Shown in pieces: positions 21,858-43,751 of a DNA stretch of 43,751 bases. The stretch lies in assembly GCA_947650775.1 (NCBI GenBank), contig CANSWQ010000001.1, forward strand, positions 1-43,751. Direction: 5' to 3'. Positions within the stretch are counted from its first letter, which is position 1. Each line of letters starts with the position of its first letter. The position numbers and the translations under genes were made by a program. Origin of the DNA: an uncultured Mycoplasmatota bacterium (GTDB lineage Bacteria > Bacillota_I > Bacilli_A > RF39 > UBA660). Below the pieces are notes generated by a model. The model saw only the letters and a program-made list of their open reading frames with translations, was not told the DNA's origin and ran no database searches.

Positions 21858-21858
21858 A

Positions 21859-27822: not shown

Positions 27823-27866
27823 TATATATTCTCCCTTCATTAAAAAAGCACTTTTTAATAAGTACT

Positions 27867-28088: not shown

Positions 28089-28362
28089 GTTCTGCTTCTC
28101 CTTCAAAATCACCAAAAATAAGCTTAGTTACAAAATCTTCTTTAACAACTAATTGATTTAATTTAATATCTAATAATTCTGCAATACACATTGCAGTCCA
28201 AGTATCTAACTCCCCCTCATAGTTTAAATGTTCTAAATTATAGATAAAATCTTTATCTTTACCCAGTTTTAAAGATAATTCTTCGCAAGATATATTTCTC
28301 TTAGTTCTATAAAATATAAGATTTATTGCAAAAACTATTTTAAATTCTTCCATGCTCATCAT
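28081..28362 (-). CDS. Small XRE-family HTH protein
   Basis: It contains LIFYRTKRNISCEELSLKLGKDKDFIYNLE and is a tandem paralog of the downstream gene. Confidence 0.75.
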   Translation of the reverse strand: MMSMEEFKIVFAINLIFYRTKRNISCEELSLKLGKDKDFIYNLEHLNYEGELDTWTAMCIAELLDIKLNQLVVKEDFVTKLIFGDFEGEAERE

Positions 28363-28422
28363 AATTTTTCCTCCTTCAACTTACATTTTATATTAAACAT
28401 AAAAAAAATGCTAATGTGCGAA

Positions 28423-31400
28423 TTATCTTTCATAAGCCTTATTGTACTTTTGGCTTTCTACTTCAACATTATCATTAAAGTCAACGACTTCATTATCTTT
28501 CTCATTCATATTAAGTAAGATATTTACATCATCTAATCGTTTGGACTTTTCTTTTAATTCTTGCTCTTGTTTAAATGGCTTTTTACATTCTTCTTTAGCA
28601 TTTTTAAATTGTACTTTGACATTTTCTAGTTCAATTTCTTCTCTTTTTAAAGCAAAAGGCATCATATCTATTTCATTATTGATACGAGTAATATTACCTA
28701 AATTATCTTTACCAAGAATTACAGAATGTGTTAGTTCGTTTTTCAAATATATTTGAAAACCATCATAGTGGTAGTCAAGTTCCATAGTAAAACCTTTATA
28801 ACTTCCTATCTCTTGTTTTTCTGACTTTCTAATATTCTTACAAAGTTCGAGTATTTTGTCTCCTGCTTCTTTCTTATCAGTATATGTGATGCCTTTTATA
28901 ATCATACTTTGAAACTTTTCATTACTATTTGGAGTATTTTTTTCAGCAAGCTCTATATCTTTTTTATAGCCTTCTATTCGTGTTTCTAACCTTTTTATTT
29001 CATTAGGATAATACTTTACCACCTTATTTTCCATCTCATAAATTTGGCTCAAGTGATTCTGTTTTAAGAGTTTTAATTTTGCAACTTGGGTATCCAACTC
29101 TGTCTTTTCCATTATAAGTGGATTACCAGCAGCGAGTGCTTTAATCTGTGCATAATTAAGTGCAGACTCATCTATATCTTCAGCAACTCTAATTGGAGTT
29201 TTAGAAGTCATTATTTGTGAAATAAATCGTTGTTTATTCTCTACTAATTGATAAAGATATGCGTCAAAAGTCCCCTCTGTTACATAATTATAGATATATA
29301 CTTCTTTGTTTTTGTTACCTTGTCTTAATATTCTACCACTTCTTTGCGTAAGGTCAGCAGGTCGCCATGGGCAGTCTAAGTTATGAATTGATATTAATTT
29401 GTCTTGACAGTTTGTTCCTGCGCCCATCTTGCTTGTGCTGCCGAGCAAGATTCTTTTTATACCATATCTTACTTGTGAAAATAAAGTGTTCTTCTGTTTA
29501 TCTGTCTTAGCATTATGAATAAACTCGACTTCATCTTCTGGAACACTTAACTCTTGCAACTTTCTTTTTAACTCATCATATACATTAAATTTATCTTCAT
29601 TTGGTGTAGATAAATCACAAAAAACAAGTTGTGTAAGGTGTTCTTCTTTATGTTCTTGCCATATTCTATAAATATTATTAGCACATAACGACACTTTACT
29701 TTCTGGAGCATCTGGCAACATATCATTTATAAGTCTTTGGTCGAGTGCAAGTTTTCTTCCATCATTTGTTATTTTTAACATATTATCAGTTGATGAGTCA
29801 ACCTGTTTATTTCTAACCCTATCTGCTCTATTAGAAAGTTCTTTTACCATATCCTTTTGTATTTCAGTAGGCTTTGCTACTATTGTTTCATAGTGTGCTT
29901 CTGGTACTGGTAGGTTAAGCATATCAGCAGTTTGAATATCTGCCACTTCTTTAAACATAGCCATCAATTCTGGTAAGTTATAAAATTTAGCAAATCTAGT
30001 CTTGGCTCTGTAACCTGTTCCCTCTGGTGCAAGTTCGATAGCTGTTACTGTTTCACCAAAAGTAGAAGCCCACGAATCGAAGTGTTGCAAATTTCTTTTC
30101 TCCAATTCTGCATATTGTAAATACCTTTGCATAGTATAAAGCTCCGCCATACTATTTGATACTGGAGTTCCAGTTGCAAATACAACTCCTCTACCGCCAG
30201 TTAATTCATCCAAGTATCTACACTTCATAAACAAGTCACTAGATTTTTGTGCTTCTGTTTGTGCTATACCACCAACATTACGCATTTTCGTATAAAGGAA
30301 AAGATTTTTATAGTAGTGTGCTTCATCCACGAATATTTTATCTACTCCAAGTTCTTCAAAGGTAACAATATCATCTTTTCGACTTGCATCATTTAACTTT
30401 GCTAATTTTAACTCAAGACCTTTTTTTAACTTTACTAATTGTTTAATAGTAAAGTTTTCTCCATTGTGCGCTTTTAAGTCTTGTACTCCCATAGTTATAT
30501 CATCAATTTGGTTTTGTAATATTATTCTTTGTCTTTCAACCGATATTGGTATCTTCTCAAATTGACTATGAGAAATAATAACTGCATCATAATCTCCTGT
30601 GCTAATTCTTGAACAGAACTTTTTACGATTCGCCGTTTCAAAGTCTTTCTCAGTAGTAACTAAGATGTTAGCACATGGATAAAGTTGTAAAAATTCCGAA
30701 CTAAATTGCCCTACTATGTTATTCGGTACTACGAACATTGACTTATTACATAGTCCTAGTCGCTTTGATTCCATCGCGGCAGCGACCATTTCAAAAGTCT
30801 TGCCTGCTCCAACTTCGTGTGCTAATAGAGTGTTTGTATTTCCATAAAGGATTCTTGCTATGGCATTAACTTGGTGTGGTCGCAAAGTTATTTCTGGATT
30901 CATACCATGAAAACTAATATGAGACCCATTATATTCACGAGGTCGATTAGTATTAAATTTTTCATTATAGATTTTACTTAGTCTATCTCTACGCTCAATA
31001 TCACTCCATACCCATTCACAAAAAGCAGATTTTATTTGTTCTTGTTTGGCTTGAGCAATAGCAGTTTCTTTTTTATTTAACACTGGTACTTTTTTACCAT
31101 TTTCATCAACATGATAATCATATATCCTAACATCTTTTAAATTAAGCGCTTCTTCTATAATTTTATAAGCATTGATTCTACCTGTTCCATAAGTAGAATA
31201 TGCTTTTACATTTTCCTTATCACAATTCTTCCCCTCTACATTCCATTGGGCTGTGCTCTCCATAAAATGCACTTGTATTTTATCTTTAATATGTGGGGCA
31301 GGAGATAAAAGATAATCAATAAAATTATTTACAACATCTACTGGAAGCCAAGTAGCACCAAGTCTTACTGCTATTTCTTGTGGTTCTAAATCTTTTGGCA

Positions 31401-34400
31401 TCACATCTTCAAGACATTTTACATTGATATCGAACCTAGAATCATATTTTGCAAACTCTTTGGCTATCTTTAACTTCTCACGAATATTACCAGATAAATA
31501 CTCATCAGCTGTTACCCATATATTAGTGTTGCCATATTCTGGAACATTAAATATCACACCCTCTAAATCAGATAACATTCTCTCCATGTCAAGACCACAA
31601 AGCCTTTGCATAAATTCTAAATCAACTCTGGCTTTCTCAGAAATAGAAACAATTAAAGCTTCATTTGCAGTATCTACATTAGTCACTTTCCTATGTGGAA
31701 GTATTGTTCTTTTAGTAAATATATCTGCTTTTTTAAGAAGTTCTTTGTTCTCATCAAGTATTTCTAAAGAACATAGTAAATAAAAACTATTATCATTAGA
31801 AAAAGCAGAGGTATTCGCTCTGCCATTGATAAGTCCATATTTTTTAGTAAAACTATCATATAGTTTATTAAGTTTTACTTGTTCTTGTTTTATATCTTCT
31901 TCTGGGAAGTCCTCTGTTTGTAGTTCTAATAAATTTCTTACACACTCTCTTATTTCTATTAAACCCCTTATACGATTTTCAGTAATAAATGGCAATTCTT
32001 GTGGATACATTCTACTATTCTCACGATAATAGATTTTGTCATCTACTATGGTATATGAGAAGTTTTTAACATTATAATCAGCAGGAATGGACAAATCTTC
32101 TTCATCTTCCCCTATATTATCTATCTCATATTCTTTTATTTCAGCGTGTATATTAGATATAGCATTGTTGAGTTGTTCTTCTAGTGTTTTATCTTCTCTT
32201 GCTTCACAAGTAGAATCCATCCCAAATCTCGTAGATTCCATTTTCATATTACCACATATCATATGGGGGTTATCAATAAAATACCTGTTCATTTTGATAC
32301 CATTTTCATCAGTATCTAAATAAACCCAATCTGGCTCTATATCAGTTATTGAATCTCGCTTTTGCAAGAAGATAATATCAGAAGTAACTTTCGTTCCTGC
32401 ATTGTCTTTAAAAGTATTATTTGGAAGTCTTATTGCTCCTAGTAAATCAGCTCTTTGTGCTATATACTTTCTAACACTTTGGTTTTCTTTATCTAAAGTA
32501 CCTTTACTTGTTATAAAAGCAACAATTCCACCTGGTCTTACTTTGTCGAGAGTTTTTGCAAAGAAATAGTCGTGAATAAGAAAATTATGCTTATCGTATC
32601 TCTTATCTAATAATTTAAGACTATCAAATGGAACATTACCTATTGCCCCATCAAAAAAAGAATCTGGAAGTTCTGTATCTTCAAAGCCCTGTACTGCAAT
32701 AGAACTCGTTTGATATAATTGTCTAGCAATTCTACCGCTTATCGAATCTACTTCAATACCATACAACTTACAGTCTTTTAAAGTATCTGGTATCATACCT
32801 AAAAAGTTCCCAACCCCACAACTAGGCTCAAGTATATTTCCATCTTTCATGCCCATACTTTCCAATGCTTTATACATTGTACGAATAACTACTGGAGGCG
32901 TATAAAAAGAGGTTCTAGTAGAATCTCTTGCAGCTTTATACTCTTCTTCATCAAGAATGTTTTTTAATTGTACAAATTCATTAGCCCATGAATTATTATT
33001 TTCTTCAAATACTTGTGATAAACCACCCCAACCAATATACTGTGATAGTATTTTCTGTTCTCCTGGAGTAGCAAAACGATTTTCTTCTTCGCATTGTTTT
33101 AAGACTTTAATTGCTTCTATATTACGATTAAACTTTTCTCTATCACTGCCAACACCCAACAAGTCATCAGTAATATGGAAGTTATTTCTATCTTGATTTT
33201 TGATTTCTGGGTGTATATCAAAAGTAGTAACTCGTGTTCTTCGTTTTTTAGCAATATTAGGTATAATTGTTTCCTTTATCTGTTCTGCTTCTTTTTCAGC
33301 CAGTAAAGATAATACTTTGCTTAATTCTTCATTACGAAAAATAGGAAAACCTACACCATTTTGGAAAGCAACATCTTTAAGTGATACGACATCATTATTG
33401 ATACTATCAATATTGTACTCTCTATTGCCAATAGTTATATTTTTACCTATTAAATTTTTTTCAAGCTTTTCTTGTTCTATGACTCTTGTTTCATATTTCT
33501 TACGATACTCTTTTAATTTTTCTATATCGTGATTATTAACTTTATCTACTGTGCCTTTTTCGTTATATTCAAAAACTTGATTGAACAAGAAGTCATATAC
33601 TTCTATACCCTCCAAAATTAGGTCATTTTCATAATCATAGGTAACAATATTTTCATTAGAATTAAATGATACCTTAATGTCATCTAATTCATAAATAGAT
33701 AGAATATGCCCCACTAAATCTACTTCATCATCATACTCGCCGTACTCTTTTTGCTCTTCTTTTTCAAAAAAATAATCATTAAAATCATTACCATAATTTT
33801 TTACTCCATACTCAAGATAACCATTATAATTTATACTATCTTTGGTAATTATTACAAGATTATTTTTAGCTAAGTCGTTTTCAAAAACATAATTGCTAAA
33901 ATCTCTAACTGTAACATAGGCTTTTTCAACATCAGTTTTATTTAATGCTTCTTGAAACTTAATAAGGTCTGCTTGTGTAAATACTTCTTGTGTTATCCAA
34001 TATAAATCATCTCCCACAGACGAATAGTCTTTAAAACGCATATTGTTAGGTATTTGCTTTTCAAATTCTATATCGATAAATTCTTTAATTTCATTCTTAG
34101 TAGTAACTTCTACTTTTAAATGGTCGTTGCAAGGATTCTCTTTTACTTTTCTATTAAATTCCTCAAAAGAAAATTCTTGATTAAATAAAGGGTAATTATA
34201 ATCATATAATCTAACAATATTATTATCTATTTCAAGAATCTCAAACTTATCTGCTCCAATATAGACTTTATCTCCTATTTTGTATCTATAATCAAAAATA
34301 ACATCTTCTGTTTTTTCGGTTACAATACAAGGTGCTTGGTCACTATCATCGTAAAATCCTAGTTGTAAATTAGTTCTCTCGTTACTATCTCCTCTGCTAT

Positions 34401-35541
34401 CGCTTTCAAGTTGTTCATTAAGCCTACCCACTTCATCTGGTCTTTGACTTTCAATTCTTCTGTTATATTCTCTTTCTTCGCCATTTCCTCTATCATTTGT
34501 TCCACTCTCGTTTCGGCTATCTCTTGAACTTTCAGCAAGTGTTCTGTTAGAACATCTTCCATCAACATTATTTGATAATCTGTGAATTTGTTCTTTTTCA
34601 AATAATTCAGTCTCATTATTCCATATTTTCCTATTGCTGTCTGCCTTTTCATTTTCACCGCTATATTCGGTAACATTACCCCATTCATTTTTTTGTAAGT
34701 TATCATTTTTACTTCTCCTTTCATCTTCTTTAATATTATAAATGTCTTTGGTATTATTATCAAATGTGCAAACAGATTCTATTTCACCAATTCGTACATC
34801 TTCTAAGATAGCGTTTATTTCATGAAGAATATTTTTAGAAATATCATTAATAGCAGAACCAAGTACTGTTATAGTAGATAAATCTTGAAATAAATTGATA
34901 TTTTTAAAGTTATCAGATATAAAATAAGGTTTCAAATTATCTTTAAAGCGCTTCAATATAATTAAAGTAACACTATTAGTCAATAAACTTTTTAATTCTT
35001 CATCTATAATATCACGAGAAATAAATTGAAGTCTAGTATTTTCTGTATTTTTATACAGATTTGATAAATAATAATGATATTTATCTTCTAATGAAGCTTT
35101 TACTACATATTTTATATTATCAAAAATATTTTCACTAACTGAAAAAGTATACTTTTCAGCTAAAGTTGCAATAACTTGACTTTCAAATGCCTGTGGTATT
35201 TTCCAAACATCAAACTTAACACTATTATGTCTTCTTTTTCCTTGAGTATCAGATATATCAAAAACATATTTTAAATAAGAATAGCCATTGCTTTCTCTTA
35301 AAAGTGCAATTCCTTTAGAGTTAGCCTTAACCCTCCTGTTTAGTTTATTGTTCCAAGTGTCATAATCTGCACATAAAGTTGCACTTGGTTTCTGAGCATA
35401 AATCATTAACTGGTCAATGAAAGCATACTTATAATTCATAGCAGCACATTCCAAAAAAGCTTCAAAATTCAAAGTATTCTCTGTAATACTAATAGCTGCC
35501 TCTTTAAAGATGTCGGTGGCATTCTTCACAGTAGTAGCCAT
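28423..35541 (-). CDS. Polyvalent conjugative-element protein: ArdC-like N-domain, disordered linker, repeated small domains, N6-adenine DNA methyltransferase, SNF2/DEAD-like helicase, C-terminal coiled region
   Basis: The N-domain reads LMIYAQKPSATLCADYDTWNNKLNRRVKANSKGIALL. MTase motif I is LEPSCGVGNF (~32806-32830) and motif IV is GNVPF (~32625-32640). The helicase has AHEVGAGKTF (~30791-30820), DEAH (~30320-30331) and QRSGRILRQGN. Confidence 0.92.
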   Translation of the reverse strand: MATTVKNATDIFKEAAISITENTLNFEAFLECAAMNYKYAFIDQLMIYAQKPSATLCADYDTWNNKLNRRVKANSKGIALLRESNGYSYLKYVFDISDTQGKRRHNSVKFDVWKIPQAFESQVIATLAEKYTFSVSENIFDNIKYVVKASLEDKYHYYLSNLYKNTENTRLQFISRDIIDEELKSLLTNSVTLIILKRFKDNLKPYFISDNFKNINLFQDLSTITVLGSAINDISKNILHEINAILEDVRIGEIESVCTFDNNTKDIYNIKEDERRSKNDNLQKNEWGNVTEYSGENEKADSNRKIWNNETELFEKEQIHRLSNNVDGRCSNRTLAESSRDSRNESGTNDRGNGEEREYNRRIESQRPDEVGRLNEQLESDSRGDSNERTNLQLGFYDDSDQAPCIVTEKTEDVIFDYRYKIGDKVYIGADKFEILEIDNNIVRLYDYNYPLFNQEFSFEEFNRKVKENPCNDHLKVEVTTKNEIKEFIDIEFEKQIPNNMRFKDYSSVGDDLYWITQEVFTQADLIKFQEALNKTDVEKAYVTVRDFSNYVFENDLAKNNLVIITKDSINYNGYLEYGVKNYGNDFNDYFFEKEEQKEYGEYDDEVDLVGHILSIYELDDIKVSFNSNENIVTYDYENDLILEGIEVYDFLFNQVFEYNEKGTVDKVNNHDIEKLKEYRKKYETRVIEQEKLEKNLIGKNITIGNREYNIDSINNDVVSLKDVAFQNGVGFPIFRNEELSKVLSLLAEKEAEQIKETIIPNIAKKRRTRVTTFDIHPEIKNQDRNNFHITDDLLGVGSDREKFNRNIEAIKVLKQCEEENRFATPGEQKILSQYIGWGGLSQVFEENNNSWANEFVQLKNILDEEEYKAARDSTRTSFYTPPVVIRTMYKALESMGMKDGNILEPSCGVGNFLGMIPDTLKDCKLYGIEVDSISGRIARQLYQTSSIAVQGFEDTELPDSFFDGAIGNVPFDSLKLLDKRYDKHNFLIHDYFFAKTLDKVRPGGIVAFITSKGTLDKENQSVRKYIAQRADLLGAIRLPNNTFKDNAGTKVTSDIIFLQKRDSITDIEPDWVYLDTDENGIKMNRYFIDNPHMICGNMKMESTRFGMDSTCEAREDKTLEEQLNNAISNIHAEIKEYEIDNIGEDEEDLSIPADYNVKNFSYTIVDDKIYYRENSRMYPQELPFITENRIRGLIEIRECVRNLLELQTEDFPEEDIKQEQVKLNKLYDSFTKKYGLINGRANTSAFSNDNSFYLLCSLEILDENKELLKKADIFTKRTILPHRKVTNVDTANEALIVSISEKARVDLEFMQRLCGLDMERMLSDLEGVIFNVPEYGNTNIWVTADEYLSGNIREKLKIAKEFAKYDSRFDINVKCLEDVMPKDLEPQEIAVRLGATWLPVDVVNNFIDYLLSPAPHIKDKIQVHFMESTAQWNVEGKNCDKENVKAYSTYGTGRINAYKIIEEALNLKDVRIYDYHVDENGKKVPVLNKKETAIAQAKQEQIKSAFCEWVWSDIERRDRLSKIYNEKFNTNRPREYNGSHISFHGMNPEITLRPHQVNAIARILYGNTNTLLAHEVGAGKTFEMVAAAMESKRLGLCNKSMFVVPNNIVGQFSSEFLQLYPCANILVTTEKDFETANRKKFCSRISTGDYDAVIISHSQFEKIPISVERQRIILQNQIDDITMGVQDLKAHNGENFTIKQLVKLKKGLELKLAKLNDASRKDDIVTFEELGVDKIFVDEAHYYKNLFLYTKMRNVGGIAQTEAQKSSDLFMKCRYLDELTGGRGVVFATGTPVSNSMAELYTMQRYLQYAELEKRNLQHFDSWASTFGETVTAIELAPEGTGYRAKTRFAKFYNLPELMAMFKEVADIQTADMLNLPVPEAHYETIVAKPTEIQKDMVKELSNRADRVRNKQVDSSTDNMLKITNDGRKLALDQRLINDMLPDAPESKVSLCANNIYRIWQEHKEEHLTQLVFCDLSTPNEDKFNVYDELKRKLQELSVPEDEVEFIHNAKTDKQKNTLFSQVRYGIKRILLGSTSKMGAGTNCQDKLISIHNLDCPWRPADLTQRSGRILRQGNKNKEVYIYNYVTEGTFDAYLYQLVENKQRFISQIMTSKTPIRVAEDIDESALNYAQIKALAAGNPLIMEKTELDTQVAKLKLLKQNHLSQIYEMENKVVKYYPNEIKRLETRIEGYKKDIELAEKNTPNSNEKFQSMIIKGITYTDKKEAGDKILELCKNIRKSEKQEIGSYKGFTMELDYHYDGFQIYLKNELTHSVILGKDNLGNITRINNEIDMMPFALKREEIELENVKVQFKNAKEECKKPFKQEQELKEKSKRLDDVNILLNMNEKDNEVVDFNDNVEVESQKYNKAYER
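34359..34706 (-). CDS. tnpV: TnpV-family protein gene nested in an alternative frame of the polyvalent ORF
   Basis: AAAGGAG lies 8 nt upstream of the ATG at 34706. The 115-aa product MITYKKMNGVMLPN...IGKYGIMRLNYLKKN...ITEELKVKDQMKWVGLMNN...EIVTRELIYN matches the TnpV pattern end to end, from memory. Confidence 0.7.
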   Translation of the reverse strand: MITYKKMNGVMLPNIAVKMKRQTAIGKYGIMRLNYLKKNKFTDYQIMLMEDVLTEHLLKVQEIAETRVEQMIEEMAKKENITEELKVKDQMKWVGLMNNLKAIAEEIVTRELIYN

Positions 35542-35565
35542 ATCTCATCTCCTTTTTATTTCTTA

Positions 35566-35886
35566 TTATTCATTTTTTGAATCTTTATTTAATAAAATAG
35601 AATAATAATCTTCATCATTATTCTTTTCAGATAGTAATAACAATTGCCAAATCATATCAGCTGCCTCGCTATGAAAAAATCTTACATCAACAAATTCTAC
35701 ATCATCCGCGCTTAATCTAGGTACAGAATATTTTAATAATTTATCTTTAAGCCTACTTGCTATAACAGATAGATTCTCCTCAGCTACATTTTGATTAATA
35801 TTAAAATCTAAAGCATTTATCAATTGGTTAAATAATGCCTTATCTAGTGTTAATTTAATTCCAGGAGTCCTTTTTTGAAACGACAT
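35566..35886 (-). CDS. Hypothetical protein
   Basis: It is a 106-aa ORF coupled to ssb, with no recognised motif. Confidence 0.6.
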   Translation of the reverse strand: MSFQKRTPGIKLTLDKALFNQLINALDFNINQNVAEENLSVIASRLKDKLLKYSVPRLSADDVEFVDVRFFHSEAADMIWQLLLLSEKNNDEDYYSILLNKDSKNE

Positions 35887-35887
35887 T

Positions 35888-36235
35888 TTATCTCTCCTCT
35901 CTATTATTTTTAGTTTTATCTATGGATGAAATAAAAGTTATTTTTTCGGTTAATACCTCTTGCACATATTTTTTTTCTTTATTTTCATTTTCATAATTGC
36001 GAGTTTGAAGTCTACCTTTAATCCCAACTATATCTCCCTTATGACAGTAATTAAAAGTAGCTTCAGCTGTACCATTCCATAATACACACTTGATAAAATC
36101 TGTTTCATATTCTCCTGAAGCATTTTTATAATTACGTTGAACTGCTATTGTAATATTAGTTCTTTTAGTTCCATCATTTAATTCTTTAATTTCAGGGTCT
36201 GCTGTAATTCTACCTACCAATGTTACACTATTCAT
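35888..36235 (-). CDS. ssb: Single-stranded DNA-binding protein (OB fold) lacking the usual acidic C-terminal tip
   Basis: It reads VTLVGRITADPEIKE...TDFIKCVLWNGTAEA...KGDIVGIKGRLQTRNYE and ends ...KTKNNREER. Confidence 0.88.
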   Translation of the reverse strand: MNSVTLVGRITADPEIKELNDGTKRTNITIAVQRNYKNASGEYETDFIKCVLWNGTAEATFNYCHKGDIVGIKGRLQTRNYENENKEKKYVQEVLTEKITFISSIDKTKNNREER

Positions 36236-36459
36236 TTTTTAATTTCCTCCTTTTCATTATTAGTACATAAAAAATCAACAATCTTTTTTGTTTTAATAGC
36301 TTTCTTTAAATCTAAAATTATAGTTATTTCTAATGAAGTTATATCATTTAATTTAGCTAAATCTTCAAGACTAATCATAAGTATAGCTTTTTCTGTGTTA
36401 AATCCCGCCTTAAATAGTTTTTCTAATAACTTAGTAATATTAGTTAAATTATAATTCAT
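36232..36459 (-). CDS. Hypothetical small protein
   Basis: It is a 75-aa ORF coupled to ssb (ATGA overlap). Confidence 0.55.
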   Translation of the reverse strand: MNYNLTNITKLLEKLFKAGFNTEKAILMISLEDLAKLNDITSLEITIILDLKKAIKTKKIVDFLCTNNEKEEIKK

Positions 36460-36470
36460 TTATATTCCTC

Positions 36471-37097
36471 CTATATTCTTTCTATTAATTCACAAATTAT
36501 AATAATTTGCTTGTTCGTATTATGTCTGCAAGTAATAAGTGTTAAAGTCGTTTTATCTTGATTCCTAACTATATCAGCTGTCCCAGTTTTCTCAATATCA
36601 TAAATTCTTTTAATCTCATATCTATATTCATAACCATTAAAAAGAATAGATACATTATCTCCTACAACTAACTTATCTAAGTTTTTAAAATATGATATAT
36701 ATCTTGTACCAGAGTGACCTGCTAAAATAAAATTGCCATTCTCTATATCTGGATAATCAGACTCTTTTAATATCTGTATATTTTGATTAACATTATTACA
36801 CTTACTATTAATATTACATAACACTTTTTCTAAATTAATTTTTGGTATTTTTATTAGTGCTATATAATTAGAAGAAGTATGAGTAACATTCGTTTCTTCA
36901 TTTACATTAGGAATAGATATTTCTTTATTTATAGTTTTTTGTTCTTTTAAAAAAACTTTTATTTGTCTATCTTCATTTATATCTTGAAGTAATAAATAAC
37001 TATGCTTACACAATATAATAACCACTCCACACATAATTAGAAAAAGGTCAAAAGGTAAAAAATTATTTTTTCTTTTTATCATAAATAAAAGCTCCAA
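36471..37097 (-). CDS. Sortase (the start may be the ATG at 37082)
   Basis: It has a TM anchor, the catalytic His in ILAGHSG and the Cys in TLTLITCRH. Confidence 0.85.
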   Translation of the reverse strand: MELLFMIKRKNNFLPFDLFLIMCGVVIILCKHSYLLLQDINEDRQIKVFLKEQKTINKEISIPNVNEETNVTHTSSNYIALIKIPKINLEKVLCNINSKCNNVNQNIQILKESDYPDIENGNFILAGHSGTRYISYFKNLDKLVVGDNVSILFNGYEYRYEIKRIYDIEKTGTADIVRNQDKTTLTLITCRHNTNKQIIIICELIERI

Positions 37098-39783
37098 TTC
37101 CTAACAATATTAATAAAAATGATATTGTATCTACAATATGATTATCATAAGCACCTGTTTGAGGAACATCTATTTTAATTTTTTCATTAGTCATAGTTAC
37201 TGGAACAATTTCATTTTCTTTACATATTTCAAAATAAATCTTTTCAGTATTTAAAATATAATCTTCAGAAGCAGGCTTTCTTTCTACTACATAGTACTTT
37301 CCGTATTTTAATTCTAATAAAATTTTTCCTTTTTCATCAGTAAAACCAGAAAAAACAAGTTCTTCTGTTTGAGCGTTAAAAACTTCAACTAGAGTATTCG
37401 GTATTGTTTCACCAGTTAAAAAATCTAACTTTGTAAAATCTAAATAACCAATTATAGGTTTGTTAGTCAAAGTTCCTTTTACAATTTCTCCATTGTCTTT
37501 TATTTCAAAATATACTTTTTCTTCAGTGAGTAAATAACCTGTTGCACTTTCACGTTCAATAGCATAATACTTACCTACTTTTAAGTTTTCTAAAATAATC
37601 TTGCCATTATCATTAGTTTTGTTACTATAAATAAGTTCATCATTTTCTGTATAAATCTCTATTAAAGTTCCAGCAACAGGCTCATTGCTAAATAAATCAG
37701 TTTTTAATAATTCAAAAGTCCCTTTTTTTAATAGGTTCAAATGGGAATATGATTCCATAACAATAGGAGTTTCATTATCTTTAGCCTTTAATTCAAAATA
37801 ATGCTTTTTATCATCAAGTACATAAAAGCTCTCTGTTTTTACTTCTTTATAATAGTACTTACCTAAAGGTAGTAACTTACTTAATGCCACTCCAGCTCCG
37901 TTAGTAGTTAAAGTATCAACTAAAGCATCTTTCTTATAGTATAAATGGTTATTATCACTAGATAAAATATCCTCAGCAGCATGAACTTCAAATATAACTC
38001 CTTCAACAGGCTTTGTATCATATATAAAGTTATTCTCTTTAATTATCATATCTTCGCCAATTTTTAATATTTTAAATTGCCCTTTAATTGGAGTATTTTT
38101 ATAAATAACAGAAACAAACACTCCATAGCTAGTGTATTGATAATCAGTACCTTCTCCTATACAAAATGATAATCCTTCTTTATCAAGTAGATAACCATGA
38201 GGGCTAGATACTTCAATCAATTTATAATTACCAGCAGGTAATTTTAAGGGTGTAATCATTTTACCGTTCTTATCTGTTTTAAATTCAGAAATAACTTGAC
38301 CACCGATGAATTGCGACACATATTGTTTTGTATCCTCATTTAAAATTTTAAAAGTAGTGTCTGCTATTGCTATAACTTTATTAGTTTCTTCATCAACCTT
38401 AACAACTTGTAGATATGCTGTCAAACTGTTATTAAGAATATTATAATACTGCTCTTTCTCACTATTTTCACTTACTGTAATATAAAAATCATAAATCTTC
38501 TCATATCCAGCTGCTGTATTTACTTGATGAAACTTCCAAACTCCATAAGGCAAATTGATAGAAGCATAACCATTTTTATCAGTTTTAATGGTATCATACA
38601 AATCTCCATTGGGATACTTTATTTCAAACTCAATATTCGCTTCAGCATTTAAAAAATCAGTATTACCATCAATGTTTCCATACTGCTTTAAAATAGATAT
38701 CCAATTTTCAACTACTTCTTCATAAACCTCAACATAAGCACTATCTTGATTAACCAAAGAAAATTCATAATGAGTTGTATCTAACTTATACCCCTCACTT
38801 GCTTTAAGCTCCTGCATATAATATTCTTTAGCTTCAAGTACACTATCACTTTTAAAGTAACCATCTTTATCTGTAATAACTGTTGTAACTAATTTGTATG
38901 TTTCTTTTTCATATACACCATATTCGGCACCAGATAATTTTGCTTGTCCTTGAGCTACACCTGTTTTCTTATCTTTTTTAACACCTTCCACAAAACCATT
39001 AAAACTATCAATTCTAATTTTTGCAACTACTGGGTCACTTGTTCCTGGAATTATCATATTTTGGTCTGTATCTCCTACAAATAACTTATAGCTTGTTGAA
39101 TATGGCATTCTTTTGCTTAGCGATACATCTATAATTCCAGATACTTTTGGAGTAATAGTTAAATTATTGCCATTAATAGAGTAATCTGCTCCACTAACAC
39201 TAACATCATATTGCGATAAAACATTGTTAGTATCTGTTAAAGTAATACTCTTTCCTTTTTGAACTCTATAATATCCAGCATTAAAACTAGGTCTAACATA
39301 ATGTTGGTCTATTAATCTACTGATTTCTCCTCTTTCTTTAGTTAAATCGAGAACTTGTCCTCTACCCCAGTAATCTTTTGAAAATTTTACAAAGCCATCT
39401 TTCATTACAGCTTCCCAAATCATAGCTTGAGCAGCTGAACGATATTCCAACGTTTCGTGTCCTGGATATGTGTACCCATAATATGCAATAAGAGTTACTA
39501 ACTCTTTAATGTCATTATCAAGATTCATATCATCCCAAGTGCCTTCTACAATTCCATTACCATAGTGAACAGTTGGCTCAATACAATAGGAAACTTGATT
39601 ATCAACATAAAAGAAATGAAACTTATCAGAAGAATGATGTTTATTCTCTCCAGAAAATTGTTGTCTTTCATACATCCAACCTGTCTCTCCAATAGTTACA
39701 TTAACTGCATAAACATTTTCAATACTAACCAATAACCCCATAAAAATTATTAATAAAATTAAATATTTTTTTATTTTATTCAT
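37063..39783 (-). CDS. Sortase-anchored surface adhesin with an N-terminal thioester domain and repeated CnaB/SpaA-type domains
   Basis: It has a signal peptide. The thioester Cys is in VSYCIEP and the Gln is in AAQAMIW. There are multiple GKYYxxExxAxxGY-type repeats. The C-terminal sorting signal is VPQTG plus a hydrophobic helix and KKKK. Confidence 0.88.
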   Translation of the reverse strand: MNKIKKYLILLIIFMGLLVSIENVYAVNVTIGETGWMYERQQFSGENKHHSSDKFHFFYVDNQVSYCIEPTVHYGNGIVEGTWDDMNLDNDIKELVTLIAYYGYTYPGHETLEYRSAAQAMIWEAVMKDGFVKFSKDYWGRGQVLDLTKERGEISRLIDQHYVRPSFNAGYYRVQKGKSITLTDTNNVLSQYDVSVSGADYSINGNNLTITPKVSGIIDVSLSKRMPYSTSYKLFVGDTDQNMIIPGTSDPVVAKIRIDSFNGFVEGVKKDKKTGVAQGQAKLSGAEYGVYEKETYKLVTTVITDKDGYFKSDSVLEAKEYYMQELKASEGYKLDTTHYEFSLVNQDSAYVEVYEEVVENWISILKQYGNIDGNTDFLNAEANIEFEIKYPNGDLYDTIKTDKNGYASINLPYGVWKFHQVNTAAGYEKIYDFYITVSENSEKEQYYNILNNSLTAYLQVVKVDEETNKVIAIADTTFKILNEDTKQYVSQFIGGQVISEFKTDKNGKMITPLKLPAGNYKLIEVSSPHGYLLDKEGLSFCIGEGTDYQYTSYGVFVSVIYKNTPIKGQFKILKIGEDMIIKENNFIYDTKPVEGVIFEVHAAEDILSSDNNHLYYKKDALVDTLTTNGAGVALSKLLPLGKYYYKEVKTESFYVLDDKKHYFELKAKDNETPIVMESYSHLNLLKKGTFELLKTDLFSNEPVAGTLIEIYTENDELIYSNKTNDNGKIILENLKVGKYYAIERESATGYLLTEEKVYFEIKDNGEIVKGTLTNKPIIGYLDFTKLDFLTGETIPNTLVEVFNAQTEELVFSGFTDEKGKILLELKYGKYYVVERKPASEDYILNTEKIYFEICKENEIVPVTMTNEKIKIDVPQTGAYDNHIVDTISFLLILLGIGAFIYDKKKK

Positions 39784-39842
39784 AACATTCCTTTCTAATA
39801 AAACTTAAATATAAGCATTAAAAAAAGACTTATTTACAAGTC

Positions 39843-40583
39843 TTAAAACATTTTCTTTAATTTATCATCATTATTAACACCATTTTCACAAAAGAAATGC
39901 AAATAATACCAAGTTTTACCATCAGCATCAATAACAGACGGATAAACTCGATAATAATTGATGCTAGGTTTTATTTGATTATCTACATGTTCCATATTAT
40001 AGTTCAAAACATAGTCTAACTCTCTGTTTGCTATTTCCAAACCTCTTGCAAGCGCTTGGCTTTCAGAAGAAAACTCTTTTTTGCCATGTGTAATAGATTC
40101 ATAAAACTTTACAACTTCATCTTTCTTTACTTCCTCTTGCTTAAAACTATCTTTATTGATGTCACTAGAATTAGTGCTCTCATTTTTTGGAACATTGTTT
40201 TCATTAGCACTATCTGTTAAAACTTCATTTTGTTTAGAATTAGTGTTTTCTTTTTTTAAATCATTATTTTTATGATTATCATCATTTAACTCATTCAAAT
40301 TAGTATTTTGTTTAGAATCACTATTTTCTAAATTGCTTTTTTTATTTGACTTTTTATTATCAGAATTTTTTATTCCTGTTTCAGTTAAAGATTGATTCAA
40401 CTTTTTATCTAAATTTTCACTACCATTAGGAACTTCTTTAACCTTTTCCTTTACTACTGGTATCTCATTATTATCATTTTTAATTTGTAGCTTATCATCG
40501 TTACCTCTAAAATACATCAGCGAGCAGCTTATTCCAACCAAAATTCCTCCAATAACTATTAATCTAATTTTTTTCATTTTCAT
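39843..40583 (-). CDS. Membrane-anchored protein with an N/K/S/D-rich low-complexity region and a C-terminal globular domain, function unknown
   Basis: It has a TM helix (RLIVIGGILVGISCSLMYF), a ~110-aa low-complexity stretch and the conserved-looking tail FYESITHGKKEF...WYYLHFFCENG. Confidence 0.7.
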   Translation of the reverse strand: MKMKKIRLIVIGGILVGISCSLMYFRGNDDKLQIKNDNNEIPVVKEKVKEVPNGSENLDKKLNQSLTETGIKNSDNKKSNKKSNLENSDSKQNTNLNELNDDNHKNNDLKKENTNSKQNEVLTDSANENNVPKNESTNSSDINKDSFKQEEVKKDEVVKFYESITHGKKEFSSESQALARGLEIANRELDYVLNYNMEHVDNQIKPSINYYRVYPSVIDADGKTWYYLHFFCENGVNNDDKLKKMF

Positions 40584-40598
40584 TTCCTCCGATTTCTT

Positions 40599-40683
40599 GT
40601 TAGTATTTTAATAGATACTAACATTATTTTCAAGTCTGCAAATTATATATTATATTTTTTTCAGTTAGTAATAATAGTTAGTA
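40599..40683. repeat. Four GTTAGTA(T/A) copies: one inverted pair (40599-40606 / 40615-40622) and two direct (40664-40670, 40677-40683); candidate parS/centromere or operator
   Basis: The copies are read directly in the parB-downstream intergenic region. Confidence 0.4.
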
Positions 40684-40689
40684 TTCTTT

Positions 40690-40733
40690 TAGAGGGGTTG
40701 TAGGGGAGACTTTTTGTAAAACATACTCCCAAC
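40690..40733. repeat. Second copy of the TAGAGGGGTT...TACTCCCAAC motif (first copy at 26198-26223)
   Basis: TAGAGGGGTTGTAGGGGAGACTTTTTGTAAAACATACTCCCAAC abuts the parB stop codon. It shares both 10-nt ends with the 26198 copy. Confidence 0.5.
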
Positions 40734-41683
40734 TATCTACTTTGATTTCGTTCTTGCTTTTTTCGTTGATAATTTACATAAAATCTTACTGCCTCAACAA
40801 TAAAATCTTCTCGCTCTTTATCATTTTTTAAACTATTTGGGAGTACAAGTCTTTCCATACTAACTCCTATCCTTGGAATTTGATTAGGCTTTTCTTCACT
40901 CAATAACTCTTCCATATAATCAATAGTTAAAGTACCCTTTTGACTATGATTCTTTAACTTAATAGCTTGCGCATGAGATGGCGTACAATCATAACACTGC
41001 ATAAAATCTAACAAAGATTTTTGCTCGTCTTGTGTTAGAAACGATATTTCAGACGCTGGACTAATTGCCATACTAGGAGATAATTTCAATGCGTCATTAT
41101 CAACCATAGTTAAAAACTCTGGTATTAACCTAGTTAAAGAAATATATCTTTGAATTTGTCTTGCGCTATATTCAGTATTTTCTGCTAGTTTCTCGTCTGC
41201 TCGAAACTTTGTGCCAACTTGGCACGAAGTTAAATCATTTCTCATACCTTGATGTTTAATAGCATCATGTTTCATTTTATATGCAAAAGCCTTTTCACTA
41301 GGGAGTACCTTTTCACGTTGATAATTACAGTCAACCATCAAAATAGTAGCTTCCTCATTCGATAATTCACGAATAACACAAGGAATCGTGTTTTTACCTA
41401 ACAATTCACAAGCCTTTTTTCTTCTATGCCCCGATATAAGTTCATATTTACCATTTTCTTTAGGTCTTACTAAAATCGGAGTTGTTACACCCACTTCTTT
41501 TATACTTTGTAATATTTCGTCCTCCTCAGAAACATCCACTTTAAAAGGGTGATTAGGAAAGTCATCAATATCACATATAGGAAGTTCGGTCATAAGTCCT
41601 AAATGGAACTCTTCTCTACTTTTATGACTTGAAAATAAACTATCTACATTGGGCAGATACACTTCTTTTTCTGTTTGTTTCAT
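40733..41683 (-). CDS. parB: ParB/Spo0J-family (ParB N-terminal nuclease-like domain) protein
   Basis: It contains PILVRPKENGKYELISGHRRKKACELLG and an HTH region (YSARQIQRYISLTRL). Confidence 0.88.
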   Translation of the reverse strand: MKQTEKEVYLPNVDSLFSSHKSREEFHLGLMTELPICDIDDFPNHPFKVDVSEEDEILQSIKEVGVTTPILVRPKENGKYELISGHRRKKACELLGKNTIPCVIRELSNEEATILMVDCNYQREKVLPSEKAFAYKMKHDAIKHQGMRNDLTSCQVGTKFRADEKLAENTEYSARQIQRYISLTRLIPEFLTMVDNDALKLSPSMAISPASEISFLTQDEQKSLLDFMQCYDCTPSHAQAIKLKNHSQKGTLTIDYMEELLSEEKPNQIPRIGVSMERLVLPNSLKNDKEREDFIVEAVRFYVNYQRKKQERNQSR

Positions 41684-42464
41684 TCAGCACAAACTCTTTA
41701 GCAAATTGTAAGTAGGCAGTAGCAACTTTACTATTCTTATCATAATCAAAAATGCTTTTTCCATTTAACGTAGCTCTAGCCACATTTATAGCACAAGGAA
41801 TCTTGGTATTAAATATATTAACATAATTTCCATAACCATTTTTAATAATATCAACAATTCTTTCAGAAAACGTAGTTCTATTATCAACCATTGTAAATAA
41901 TAGTCCTTTAATTTTTAAGCTTGGATTGATATCTTTGTTAATACTTTTAATAGTTTTTATTAGACTGCCTGTGGCTCTTGCAGATAAATACTGAGCTTCA
42001 ACAGGTATTACGACATCATCAGCAAATGCTAAAGCATTTACTGTTATTATATCAAGGCTAGGCATACAATCAATTAAAATATAATCATAATTATCTCTTA
42101 ACTTTTCTAACCCCTGTTTCATAATACATTCTCTATAATTAGACTTCCCTAACAGCAAAGTTAATTCAGCTAGCTCTATACTACCAGGAATTAAATCTAT
42201 GCCTTCACAATGATGCAAAATAACATCGTTAAGGTTAAAAGAATTATGATTTATGACATTCTTCATTATACTTGCTATATTTAAGGCATTATCCATGTCA
42301 TAATATCCCATACTAATGGTTAAATCAGCTTGTGGGTCTGCATCAACTAATAATACTTTTTTGCCTAGTCTTGCTAAAGCAACACTTAAATGCAAAGCAG
42401 TTGTAGTTTTGCCTACCCCACCTTTTTGATTGGCTATTGCGGTAATTTTACAATTGGCCATCAT
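41640..42464 (-). CDS. parA: ParA/Soj-family partition ATPase
   Basis: It has the deviant Walker A, IANQKGGVGKTTT. Confidence 0.92.
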   Translation of the reverse strand: MMANCKITAIANQKGGVGKTTTALHLSVALARLGKKVLLVDADPQADLTISMGYYDMDNALNIASIMKNVINHNSFNLNDVILHHCEGIDLIPGSIELAELTLLLGKSNYRECIMKQGLEKLRDNYDYILIDCMPSLDIITVNALAFADDVVIPVEAQYLSARATGSLIKTIKSINKDINPSLKIKGLLFTMVDNRTTFSERIVDIIKNGYGNYVNIFNTKIPCAINVARATLNGKSIFDYDKNSKVATAYLQFAKEFVLNETNRKRSVSAQCR

Positions 42465-42525
42465 TTCTCCTTTCTAACACACCAAGTAATATAAATTACT
42501 AGGTAATGTACTATGCCTAAAGCAT

Positions 42526-42551
42526 AAAAAAATCACTATATATTAGTGATT
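42526..42551 (-). terminator. Intrinsic terminator after the 121-aa ORF
   Basis: The minus-strand RNA reads AAUCACUA-AUAUA-UAGUGAUU followed by U7. Confidence 0.7.
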
Positions 42552-42561
42552 AATGTTTTCA

Positions 42562-42927
42562 TTATCTAACATTGTCATTATTTTTATCTATCATATTATA
42601 TATTCTTGAAGTAACCTCGGTATTTCTATGTCCGAAAATAGTCATATCATTGTTTATTATTTCTTCTAACTTTAATTTTTTTACTTCACGCCAAGTTAAA
42701 TGATTATCTTCCTTAAATTTTTTATATTTATGATATAAATTAATATTATCTCTAAATTGATTTCTAAAATTTAAAAAGTCGTTAAAGTCTGTATCATAAG
42801 GAAGCTTATACATATCTAAAATTTTTTTTATATTCTCATCTGTAAGCAAAATTTTTCTATGTTTAAATGATATACATTTTCTTGAAGTGTTATTTAAAGG
42901 TTTCTTTTTACAATTCACATCCTTCAT
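42562..42927 (-). CDS. Hypothetical basic protein; its C-terminus resembles the last motif of tyrosine recombinases
   Basis: It is a 121-aa ORF, the first gene at the right end of the ICE. FGHRNTEVTSRIYNMI resembles LGHxxxxTTxxYxH. Confidence 0.55.
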   Translation of the reverse strand: MKDVNCKKKPLNNTSRKCISFKHRKILLTDENIKKILDMYKLPYDTDFNDFLNFRNQFRDNINLYHKYKKFKEDNHLTWREVKKLKLEEIINNDMTIFGHRNTEVTSRIYNMIDKNNDNVR

Positions 42928-43021
42928 ATTAGTGTCCTTTCTTTCATATTTTATTATAAATTAAAAAAGCTATAAAATACAGCTTTATATGTTTAAAACG
43001 AGCCTAAACTCGGTATTATCT

Positions 43022-43095
43022 TGGCAGGGGATGAGAGAATCGAACTCCCATCTGGCGTTTTGGAGACGCTCATTTTTCCATTAAACTAATCCCCT
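43022..43095 (-). tRNA. trnW: tRNA-Trp (anticodon CCA), complete, with CCA encoded
   Basis: The reverse complement is AGGGGATTAGTTTAATGGAAAAATGAGCGTCTCCAAAACGCCAGATGGGAGTTCGATTCTCTCATCCCCTGCCA. The acceptor stem is AGGGGAT/ATCCCCT, the D stem GTTT/AAAT and the anticodon loop CUCCAAA. The T arm is GGGAG-TTCGATT-CTCTC, with G73. Confidence 0.92.
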
Positions 43096-43115
43096 AAATT
43101 TCATTTTGAAATAAC

Positions 43116-43144
43116 TTGATATGTTATGTTTTACTTTGTTTCAA
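43116..43144 (-). promoter_or_regulatory. Possible promoter for the intact tRNA-Trp
   Basis: The minus strand reads TTGAAA-17 nt-TATCAA, ending ~20 nt before the tRNA 5' end. Confidence 0.35.
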
Positions 43145-43164
43145 ATTATTTTTACCATTCCAAA

Positions 43165-43174
43165 TTGGCAGAAT
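43165..43174 (+). repeat. TTGGCAGAAT, matching the GTGGCAGAAT arm-type repeat next to int
   Basis: A 9/10 match to 151-160 occurs within a 150-bp spacer. I estimate the chance expectation at about 1e-3. Confidence 0.4.
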
Positions 43175-43175
43175 A

Positions 43176-43209
43176 AATTCTAATTTCAACAATTTAGAAT
43201 TGTTTTTTT
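43176..43209. terminator. Intrinsic terminator (usable on both strands) between the tRNA-Trp 5' fragment and the intact tRNA-Trp
   Basis: AATTCTAA-10 nt-TTAGAATT is followed by G T7 on the plus strand. On the minus strand an A7 run precedes it and UUUAUUCU follows. Confidence 0.65.
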
Positions 43210-43246
43210 GCCTTAAACACTGGGAGTACAAGGTGGTAAGCATTAG

Positions 43247-43285
43247 GTTTTGGAGACTCCTATGCTACCATTATACCACGCCCCT
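43247..43285 (-). pseudogene. 5' half of a tRNA-Trp (acceptor strand through anticodon loop), followed by non-tRNA sequence
   Basis: The reverse complement is AGGGGCGTGGTATAATGGTAGCATAGGAGTCTCCAAAAC. No T-arm or CGCCCCT strand follows. The acceptor strand is complementary to the 3' fragment at 1-46. Confidence 0.8.
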
Positions 43286-43297
43286 ACGTGTATTTGT

Positions 43298-43326
43298 ATT
43301 ATAGCACATTTAATCCCATATTTCAA
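43298..43326 (-). promoter_or_regulatory. Near-consensus sigma-A promoter driving the tRNA-Trp 5' fragment
   Basis: The minus strand reads TTGAAA-17 nt-TGcTATAAT, with the -10 ending 12 nt before AGGGGCG. Confidence 0.7.
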
Positions 43327-43359: not shown

Positions 43360-43751
43360 ATGATCGTAAATTACACTACTAAAGAATTAGATTTACTAGC
43401 AAGGCTTATGCGTGCTGAAGCTCAAACAGAAGGAGATTTAGGAATGCTCATGGTAGGTAATGTTGTAGTCAATAGAGTTTTAGGAGATTGTTATACTTTT
43501 AAAAATATTGATAGTATAACTGATGCTATATTTCAGCCTAATCAATTCGTAGGCGCTGATTCTCCCCTCTTCTATGGTTCTTCTACTACTTCCGAAAAAA
43601 ATCTCGCTAAACGCATTTTAATGGGGGAATATTATTACCCCGCTACTCATTCTTTATGGTTCTATGCCCCGCCATCATCAAACACATCATGTAAAACTAC
43701 GTGGTATAGTCAACCTTTAGCTGGTAAATATAAAAATCATTGTTTTTATAG
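43360..43751 (+). CDS. CwlJ/SleB-type cell-wall (spore cortex) hydrolase, 3'-truncated by the window end; host flank
   Basis: AGGTGA lies 7 nt before the ATG. The sequence LLARLMRAEAQTEGDLGMLMVGNVVVNRV...FQPNQF... is typical of the Hydrolase_2 family. The frame is open to position 43751. Confidence 0.8.
   Translation, partial: MIVNYTTKELDLLARLMRAEAQTEGDLGMLMVGNVVVNRVLGDCYTFKNIDSITDAIFQPNQFVGADSPLFYGSSTTSEKNLAKRILMGEYYYPATHSLWFYAPPSSNTSCKTTWYSQPLAGKYKNHCFY

Follow-up and report, generated by a model that had tools for sequence, protein, structure and literature searches.

An integrative and conjugative element of uncultured gut Bacilli that probably splits its tRNA-Trp target at the anticodon loop and carries a complete tRNA-Trp of its own

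What becomes of a tRNA gene when an element integrates into it without rebuilding it? The question is raised by a 43,751-nucleotide (nt) stretch of an uncultured Mycoplasmatota bacterium (contig CANSWQ010000001.1; hereafter the window), with a G+C content of ~27% throughout, which is occupied almost entirely by an integrative and conjugative element (ICE) and contains three pieces related to tRNA-Trp: a 5' half, a complete gene, and a 3' half. An earlier note, made from the sequence alone, had proposed that the element entered the anticodon loop of a host tRNA-Trp, left the target unrepaired, and supplied a whole tRNA in its place. The proposal holds up against an empty site in a relative, the recurrence of the junctions, and the layout of a sister ICE: We consider it probable that the ICE split the host tRNA-Trp at the anticodon loop without regenerating it and that the element-borne tRNA-Trp compensates for the loss.

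Along the minus strand of the window, the order is host promoter, tRNA-Trp 5' half, a 151-nt spacer, complete tRNA-Trp, ICE, arm-type repeats, and tRNA-Trp 3' half (for coordinates, see Table 1). ARAGORN calls the complete tRNA-Trp(cca) as the sole tRNA of the window, and this call together with a repeat finder places all three pieces on the minus strand, where the earlier note had put them. The repeat finder pairs positions 1-44 with 43022-43065 (86% identity over 44 nt) and 43057-43096 with 43247-43286 (75% identity). The 9-bp core CTCCAAAAC is present as three direct copies, at 36-44, 43057-43065, and 43247-43255. As had been noticed, the two outer halves are complementary: Fused at CTCCAAAAC, they give a 74-mer that ARAGORN also calls tRNA-Trp(cca). 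No tRNA is called by ARAGORN when the 5' half is read on into its actual downstream sequence, or at the integrase (int)-side junction. At the right attachment junction (attR), the sequence past the core is CTAATGCTTACC... and not the tRNA 3' half; the only sequence common to attR, the left junction (attL), and the intact host site (attB) is CTCCAAAAC. The near-consensus promoter reported in front of the 5' half is also there (TTGAAA-17-TATAAT with an upstream TG); after integration it faces the P' arm and the ICE tRNA.

To see the target before integration, a degenerate pattern able to match attB, attL, attR, or the attachment site of the free element (attP) was scanned on metagenome contigs. 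It returned at least 120 loci, and all of those among the matches listed have an intact tRNA-Trp. At least 28 of the 120 listed genes are identical over 74 nt to the reconstructed 74-mer; others show compensatory changes in the acceptor stem (GCG/CGC, GTG/CAC, GCA/TGC, and AGAGG/CCTCT). Each listed gene stands alone, with a TATAAT box ~10 nt upstream and a hairpin downstream, and many have beside them a hydrolase gene with 70%-74% DNA identity to the window flank. The intact host-type tRNA-Trp scores 54.3 bits on the Rfam tRNA model. A weak D stem and two G-U pairs had led to the suggestion that the split tRNA is already decaying. These features are native, being found in all 120 intact genes among the matches listed, and because they are conserved across these orthologs we reject decay of the split gene.

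The closest hydrolase homolog with genomic context (P0121, 89% amino acid identity) lies on a 54-kb JGI contig, L229, whose gene order NrdD-NrdG-dUTPase-hydrolase matches that of the window's species (compared by way of contig L219). L229 is the closest ICE-free relative found. Behind a homologous promoter (...GCTATAATGTTTTTACACGT) with the layout seen in the window, it has a single intact tRNA-Trp of the AGGGGCG type, which agrees with the reconstructed 74-mer at every base and is followed by unrelated DNA. This orthologous locus has no spacer, no AGGGGAT-type tRNA, and no tRNA fragment, the features whose presence in an ICE-free genome would, according to the earlier note, have spoken against its proposal. 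Since the flank is only 80.5% identical to the window at the DNA level, we regard L229 as a sister species.

The ICE-borne tRNA-Trp is identical to the host tRNA at 58 of 74 positions. It has an AGGGGAT/ATCCCCT acceptor stem with A1-U72, a G discriminator, and an encoded CCA, and it is co-oriented with the broken host gene at a distance of 151 nt from the core. Its halves match each other (AGGGGAT/ATCCCCT and GCGT/ACGC) and not those of the host (AGGGGCG/CGCCCCT), so that the difference in acceptor pairs seen at first reading stands, with no cross-match between halves. Aligned with seven host variants, the two ICE tRNAs keep the cloverleaf: Pairing holds in 95.8% of its cells, and seven pairs are changed on both sides; none of 500 shuffles reaches this level, and slid controls give 45%-64%. 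This covariation supports a cloverleaf that looks functional. The tRNA may be expressed and charged, and the host may need it for viability. Because its acceptor stem and T arm equal those of the host 3' half beside a related integrase on L139 (Candidatus Caccenecus avistercoris), it probably came from a related Bacilli host.

The occupied junctions recur in ENA, NCBI, and Logan records, which come from different pipelines. The 121-amino acid (aa) protein encoded beside the ICE tRNA is found on 18 contigs. Six contigs from different samples and assemblers (L219, L220, L221, L224, L226, and L228) span the junction and are base-identical to the window over the 5' half, core, spacer, and ICE tRNA; L219 is 99.9% identical over 10.75 kb across it. 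Samples carrying the element are ERZ14425193, ERZ14499418, ERZ14425215, SRR31301521, SRR35286949, DRR868334, and SRR30902852. On the integrase side, eight loci (L002-L009) with a 98% identical integrase have the same order of int, arms, core, and 3' half. The exact integrase of the window was found on one 2.5-kb contig only, and no record was found with its exact ParA.

Two different host flanks follow the tRNA CCA in L002-L009 (seen in L003 at 1975-11610, and in L002 and L004 downstream of the 3' half). One contains a radical-SAM gene and a PhdYeFM/ParE pair. In the other are genes for Fic, a metallophosphatase, a DNA methylase, helix-turn-helix (HTH) regulators, a reverse transcriptase, and DUF2201; this second flank looks like a defense or mobile island that adjoins the tRNA.

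The integrase belongs to a family whose members, 42%-98% identical, all come from uncultured gut or rumen Bacilli. A profile search of genome contigs returned only two close relatives among species representatives, and the best identity to an annotated phage or plasmid is 28.5%. The most informative relative is a sister ICE (L010-L017; integrase 75% identical), one copy of which is in an NCBI metagenome-assembled genome (MAG), GCA_030531905.1. The order in L010 is int, a complete tRNA-Trp in convergent orientation (60.9 bits), a spacer, a host-type 5' half, and the host promoter. The core at the junction is again CTCCAAAAC, and the host-type 5' half differs from that of the window (AGGGGATTAG...GGTCTCCAAAAC). 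The host flank is DUF3048/GpsA and not the hydrolase, and int lies on the other side of the tRNA. The spacers of L010 and the window align in three blocks: GCTTACCA, five nt past the core; an arm-type site, CTGCCAATTTG.A.TGG; and TTGAAACA, with a TTGAAAC box, ~55 nt before the tRNA. Since spacer and tRNA travel with the integrase into another context and another gene order, we assign them to the element, as the P' arm of attP. At 16279-16754 of L010, 4.5 kb from the junction, is the beginning of a 16S rRNA gene that could identify the host of this sister ICE.

More distant members give the complementary evidence. The integrases of L139 (64% identical), L245 (62%), L246 (50%), and L140 (a Bacilli MAG; 42%) are each followed by (A/T)CTGCCA repeats, CTCCAAAAC, and a tRNA-Trp 3' half. 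The acceptor strands of these 3' halves are ATCCCCT in L139, CGCCCCT in L140, TTCCCCT in L245, and TACCCCT in L246. Because they differ, the DNA beyond the core is host DNA, and identity between element and target appears to end at the 9-bp core. (Accessions: L010, JAUNMG010000002.1; L139, DVJF01000036.1; L002, Ga0081461_1001896; L246, Ga0081461_1000019.)

Sister ICEs with a ParB 65% identical to that of the window use tRNA-Phe. In L243 (4699-5222), a 479-aa integrase is followed by TATGGATAA arm repeats, core GACTGAAAATCT, a tRNA-Phe 3' half only, and then ParA; this junction, attP-like or tandem, is of the classical, restoring kind. In L242 (4749-5222), a host tRNA operon ends in an aberrant 81-nt tRNA-Phe. 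A spacer of 147 nt, in which these arm repeats are found again, separates it from a second complete tRNA-Phe, whose anticodon stem differs, and ParA comes next. This locus could be a tRNA-Phe analog of the layout in the window or an intermediate toward it.

Three direct copies of the core are also the pattern left by tandem arrays, and spacer and tRNA-Trp might form a small nonconjugative element, perhaps separately mobile, that accreted beside the ICE in one split tRNA. Other recurrent inserts at the 3' end of tRNA-Trp, which mark the gene as a hot spot, and the composite structure of L242 would fit such a history. The "small element" would, however, hold no gene except the tRNA in its 225 bp. 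Spacer and tRNA stay together as a unit with integrases of the family in two different gene orders and two different host contexts; the unit is contiguous with ICE genes in all six of the independent occupied contigs, and no contig was found that has the unit and lacks the ICE. We therefore judge tandem accretion to be improbable.

A slightly poorer case can be made for integration of the classical kind within the complete tRNA-Trp, at its own loop or its 3' end, with only a 3' half supplied and the 5' fragment and spacer left as an older scar, an alternative that the earlier note had itself raised. The complete tRNA does hold the CTCCAAAAC core within the 44-nt direct repeat; int lies directly beside the complete tRNA in L010, as in classical tRNA islands; and, in L243, ParA is preceded by a classical attP that contains no more of tRNA-Phe than its 3' half. 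In that case attP would read ...TTTATTTTAAAGA-CTCCAAAAC-GCCAGATGGGAGTTCG, with the P arm joined to GCCAGATGGGAG. The fragment on the int side should then be of the AGGGGAT type, but none is present beside the P arm: It is of the AGGGGCG type and pairs with the distant 5' half, not with that of the complete gene, so that the ICE would have had to enter a hybrid gene, mismatched at two positions of the acceptor stem and also in the anticodon stem. Nor is there a scar or an AGGGGAT-type tRNA at the empty site of the sister species, and the spacer of the supposed scar contains an arm-type site and is found with the integrase family in another host context as well. In L010, moreover, the loop of the element tRNA reads CTCCAAAAG, unlike the junction core. 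Taken together, these observations make a scar quite improbable. That the tRNA-like pieces of different strains were misjoined in assembly or binning is extremely improbable, even for metagenomic sequences of an uncultured host in which several short contigs break inside tRNA repeats, because the junction is base-identical in six independent samples, with identical junctions from different pipelines, with L219 matching across it, and with the int-side junction recurring in eight loci.

Under the preferred reading, the ~43.2-kb insert (window ~45 to 43246) would be one ICE of an uncultured gut Bacilli bacterium. Its lambda-like integrase would bind TTCTGCCA-type arm sites on both sides of the 9-bp core and recombine this core with its identical counterpart in the anticodon loop of tRNA-Trp, a stand-alone gene of the host. 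Since attP would carry no tRNA 3' half beyond the core, the host gene would stay split, with its promoter-bearing 5' half at one end and its 3' half ~43 kb away. The ICE tRNA would come to lie behind the host tRNA promoter, in addition to weak -35/-10-like signals of its own, and would supply tRNA-Trp for as long as the element is resident. We place the crossover at the outer cores, its exact position following from attL, attR, and the attB of the sister species. Recombination between these cores would restore the host gene exactly, with attP reading ...TTTATTTTAAAGA-CTCCAAAAC-CTAATGCTTACCACC and the empty site TGCTATAATACAAATACACGT-AGGGGCG...GGAGTCTCCAAAACTTTTGATGGGAG.

Several points weigh against this reading. 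The empty site comes from the sister species and not from the same species. The host flank past position 1 of the window, which is the CCA end of the 3' half, lies outside the window, and we infer the integrase-side flank from relatives. No excised circle or attP junction was recovered: The metagenome matches listed (at least 120) are all intact genes, which makes the lack of attP or attR forms among them uninformative; a scan of viral contigs for the attP/attR junction gave no matches, and one for the core plus GCTTACCA gave four chance matches in unrelated coding DNA. (A scan of genome contigs with a pattern fitting only the occupied junction, not the intact gene, also gave none, which says little.) The anticodon loop of the ICE tRNA holds the same 9-bp core, making recombination between the second and third copies possible. 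The classical 3'-half attP of L243 indicates that the family is not uniformly of the replacing type, and L242 indicates that its attachment regions have complex histories. The need for a replacement is unproven and hinges on the number of host tRNA-Trp genes; a second intact copy elsewhere would remove the need and leave the anatomy standing. Finally, a promoter scan found no consensus promoter for the ICE tRNA on the minus strand of the spacer.

The possible promoter that the earlier note gave to the intact gene has one candidate: a conserved -35-like box, TTGAAAC, ~55 nt ahead of the ICE tRNA and, 17 nt further downstream, a weak -10 (TATCAA). Transcription from this pair and read-through from the strong host promoter are equally possible. 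The note's claim that the spacer matches the repeats near int is borne out. The motif TTCTGCCA (reverse complement of TGGCAGAA) has four copies in the window against 0.9 expected, and three of the four are within the two att arms, all on the minus strand (143-150, 152-159, and 43166-43173, the last in the spacer). The terminator said to follow the broken tRNA was not found: The terminator scan gives no site on the minus strand of 43096-43246, and the only hairpin in the fold consists of A+T and lacks a proper U tract. Shielding of the ICE tRNA from read-through is therefore unsupported. A hairpin formed by the 5' half and the core-proximal P' sequence was considered as a terminator or processing signal and was rejected, since shuffled sequences fold about as well (z = -1.25; for the spacer as a whole, z = -1.76). 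Immediately past the ICE tRNA are two small hairpins, each with a U tract after it; they are too low in G+C to pass the threshold of the terminator scan and only suggest where the tRNA transcription unit ends.

Integration into the anticodon loop is in itself a known class; the sublocation classes of tRNA-gene integration that Williams set out in 2002 are said to include it. Like the window, classical islands of this class have a tyrosine integrase that crosses over in the loop and a 3' fragment of the tRNA displaced to the far end. According to the Islander paper (PMC4383910), the target is there restored by the element's own tRNA segment from the crossover to the 3' end, whereas here only 9 bp are shared and the target is not regenerated, so that the restoring criterion of Islander-type searches does not describe this element. 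The departure from the usual mode claimed in the earlier note is real, but it is not unprecedented. Guerrero-Bustamante and Hatfull (mBio 2024) demonstrated "tRNA-dependent lysogeny" experimentally in mycobacteriophage Fionnbharth, in which the integrase, a tyrosine recombinase, acts on a 10-bp core within tRNA-Lys, no tRNA is regenerated, and lysogens are viable only with the phage tRNA-Lys; they list further Mycobacterium and Gordonia phages with 8- to 17-bp cores by sequence (PMC10865867). Experimental demonstration is so far confined to some mycobacteriophages.

The likeness to these actinobacteriophages (Fionnbharth, LeBron, Gaia, and others) extends to a lambda-like tyrosine integrase with arm-type sites, an attB overlapping a host tRNA gene, a core of 8-17 bp (9 bp here), the lack of a functional tRNA at either junction, and an element tRNA of the same isotype and divergent sequence. 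The window has every feature of tRNA-dependent lysogeny that can be read from sequence, and by analogy the system would be its functional counterpart in an ICE. The differences are also clear. The element is a conjugative ICE of low-G+C gut Bacilli and not a temperate phage of Actinobacteria; its integrase is at most 28.5% identical to that of any annotated phage; and the target is tRNA-Trp rather than tRNA-Lys, tRNA-Ile2, or tRNA-Leu. The replacement tRNA lies in the P' arm, 151 nt from the core and behind the promoter of the broken gene, whereas that of Fionnbharth lies elsewhere, overlapping gene 37, and that of Gaia lies downstream from int. The necessity of the tRNA was shown genetically in the phages and is presumed here.

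Of the papers listed among 23 that mention tRNA-dependent lysogeny, none deals with an ICE. There are two possible leads outside Actinobacteria. In the text on ICEMh1 and ICEPmu1 (Pasteurellaceae, tRNA-Leu UUG), direct repeats of 11-13 bp correspond to the anticodon loop of the target tRNA, and ICEMh1 has a disrupted, a full-length, and, upstream of the full-length one, a third disrupted tRNA-Leu copy, which the authors do not interpret as a replacement (PMC6861422). This three-piece layout resembles ours, by that paper's text alone; the recombinases of those elements are XerCD-like pairs, the host is Gram-negative, and the type IV secretion system (T4SS) is of another kind. Prophage Lj965 of Lactobacillus johnsonii is cited as a possible case (PMC10865867); according to that citation, this Firmicutes element reportedly encodes a cognate tRNA and does not rebuild the target, and it differs in being a prophage and not an ICE. 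What is new here is that the element is an ICE and not a phage, that it belongs to gut Bacilli, that the target is tRNA-Trp, and that the replacement sits in the P' arm behind a captured host promoter; the mechanism itself is known.

Do these ICEs of gut and rumen Bacilli form a family that obligately splits and replaces its target, with capture of the host promoter and a wider host range as the outcome? We advance this tentatively, as a possibility that falls somewhat short of an even chance. The integrase would then need only the nearly universal anticodon loop of tRNA-Trp, and hosts whose stems are incompatible with any single restoring 3' half would become accessible; four acceptor types are seen beside family members. 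Because it lies in the P' arm, the element's tRNA would be parked behind the host tRNA promoter by integration, and any imprecise loss of the ICE would be lethal.

If the compensation of a disrupted tRNA by an element copy is confirmed, it is not peculiar to actinobacteriophages and extends to the conjugative elements of abundant uncultured gut Firmicutes; a phage concept two years old would thus apply to conjugative elements of the gut microbiome. It would suggest a function for some of the "cargo" tRNAs on ICEs, and translation of Trp codons may depend on the ICE gene during integration. A requirement for only the 9-bp anticodon-loop core would allow a broader host range, and tRNA-dependent lysogeny would, if splitting and replacement prove obligate, gain a host-range rationale along with its extension to ICEs. 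For annotation, Islander-type finders assume regeneration of the target and would draw a wrong ICE boundary or take the ICE-borne gene for that of the host. The compact cassette of int, attP, and tRNA might also, by analogy with mycobacterial vectors, serve as an integration tool for gut Bacilli that are hard to engineer.

Judged by its gene content, the element is a complete ICE, with relaxase, VirD4, VirB4, VirB6-like protein, integrase, and ParAB; integrase, relaxase, coupling protein, and T4SS ATPase all lie in one element bounded by the split tRNA. Further genes with Pfam matches encode a DUF3991/Toprim primase, a 2372-aa SNF2 helicase, SSB, a CHAP hydrolase, a sortase with a thioester/SpaA adhesin, ParA/ParB, a sigma factor, and HTH regulators. 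The integrase has an N-terminal SAM-like/arm-binding region and a C-terminal extension of ~115 aa past the Pfam catalytic domain (residues ~400-515; window 329-680(-)), which is conserved in the family, with invariant residues up to P512. Directly upstream of int is a 100-aa open reading frame (ORF) with a counterpart of 100-102 aa beside int in every relative examined; its position would suit an excisionase or directionality factor. A pemK RNA (Rfam RF02913, 59 bits) lies at 2999-3079(-), upstream of a small ORF and the PemK/MazF gene (2303-2653). It is also found at 8640-8720 of L010, and the PemK module with its leader is conserved beside the integration module in all family members.

Table 1. 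Positions of the tRNA-Trp pieces, attachment-site features, and genes in the window
Feature	Position	Strand	Basis or remarks
Displaced host tRNA-Trp 3' half, reads GACTCCAAAACTTTTGATGGGAGTTCGATTCTCTCCGCCCCTGCCA	1..46	-	Anticodon loop to CCA; with the P arm, attL
Common core CTCCAAAAC at attL; presumed crossover region	36..44	-	Anticodon-loop positions 32-38 and first two bases of the 3' stem
P-arm arm-type repeats, two TTCTGCCAC and one ACTGCCAC	142..170	-	Between int and 3' half
Tyrosine integrase, 515 aa	329..1876	-	Pfam PF00589 (6.5e-23), PF22022, PF14659; lambda type
100-aa ORF directly upstream of int	1881..2183	-	No Pfam match
ICE body	2184..43021	-	PemK, sigma factor, HTH regulators, CHAP, conjugation genes, primase, helicase, SSB, adhesin, ParB/ParA
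VirB4-like ATPase	13019-15340	-	Pfam
TrbL/VirB6-like protein	17692-18534	-	Pfam
VirD4 coupling protein	18895-20679	-	Pfam
MobA/VirD2 relaxase	22667-23935	-	Pfam
Two small hairpins with U tracts, terminator-like	42963..43012	-	Fold; directly downstream of ICE tRNA-Trp
Complete ICE-borne tRNA-Trp(CCA)	43022..43095	-	ARAGORN; Rfam 58.8 bits vs. gathering score 29
Spacer, P' arm of attP	43096..43246	-	GCTTACCA block near core; arm-type site TTCTGCCAAT (43166-43173 and flank); TTGAAAC box
Host tRNA-Trp 5' half (AGGGGCG...), reads AGGGGCGTGGTATAATGGTAGCATAGGAGTCTCCAAAAC	43247..43285	-	attR junction; core CTCCAAAAC at 43247-43255
Native host tRNA-Trp promoter, TTGAAA-17-TGcTATAAT	43298..43326	-	11/12 matches, upstream TG; best site of the region
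Host SleB-like cell-wall hydrolase, cut by window end	43360..43751	+	Pfam Hydrolase_2; divergent from the tRNA-Trp promoter; marks the host side

Two minor observations concern other integration sites. ParB relatives L230-L239 (72%-77% identical; e.g., L232, 4674-5223) directly follow a truncated Peptidase_U57 (YabG-like) ORF of 102-119 aa, downstream of MetRS, TatD, and KsgA and with no tRNA nearby, which points to a third target of these ICEs, where the gene for the sporulation protease, yabG, is possibly interrupted. At tRNA-Trp itself, two sequences recur directly after the CCA: ...ACGAACTTTTACTnCTTTnTnGGTGGGTTTGCT (in L041, L042, L045, L058, L091, L131, and L139, 11845-11895) and AATCGTCGAACCTTTTCGACGTTGAGATAAAACTTGA (in L033, L060, L082, L092, and L140, 5487-5530). 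The upstream flanks of the genes that they follow are mutually unrelated, and each of the two sequences is probably where another kind of mobile element ends that targets the 3' terminus of tRNA-Trp; in these bacteria the gene would then be a hot spot for integration.

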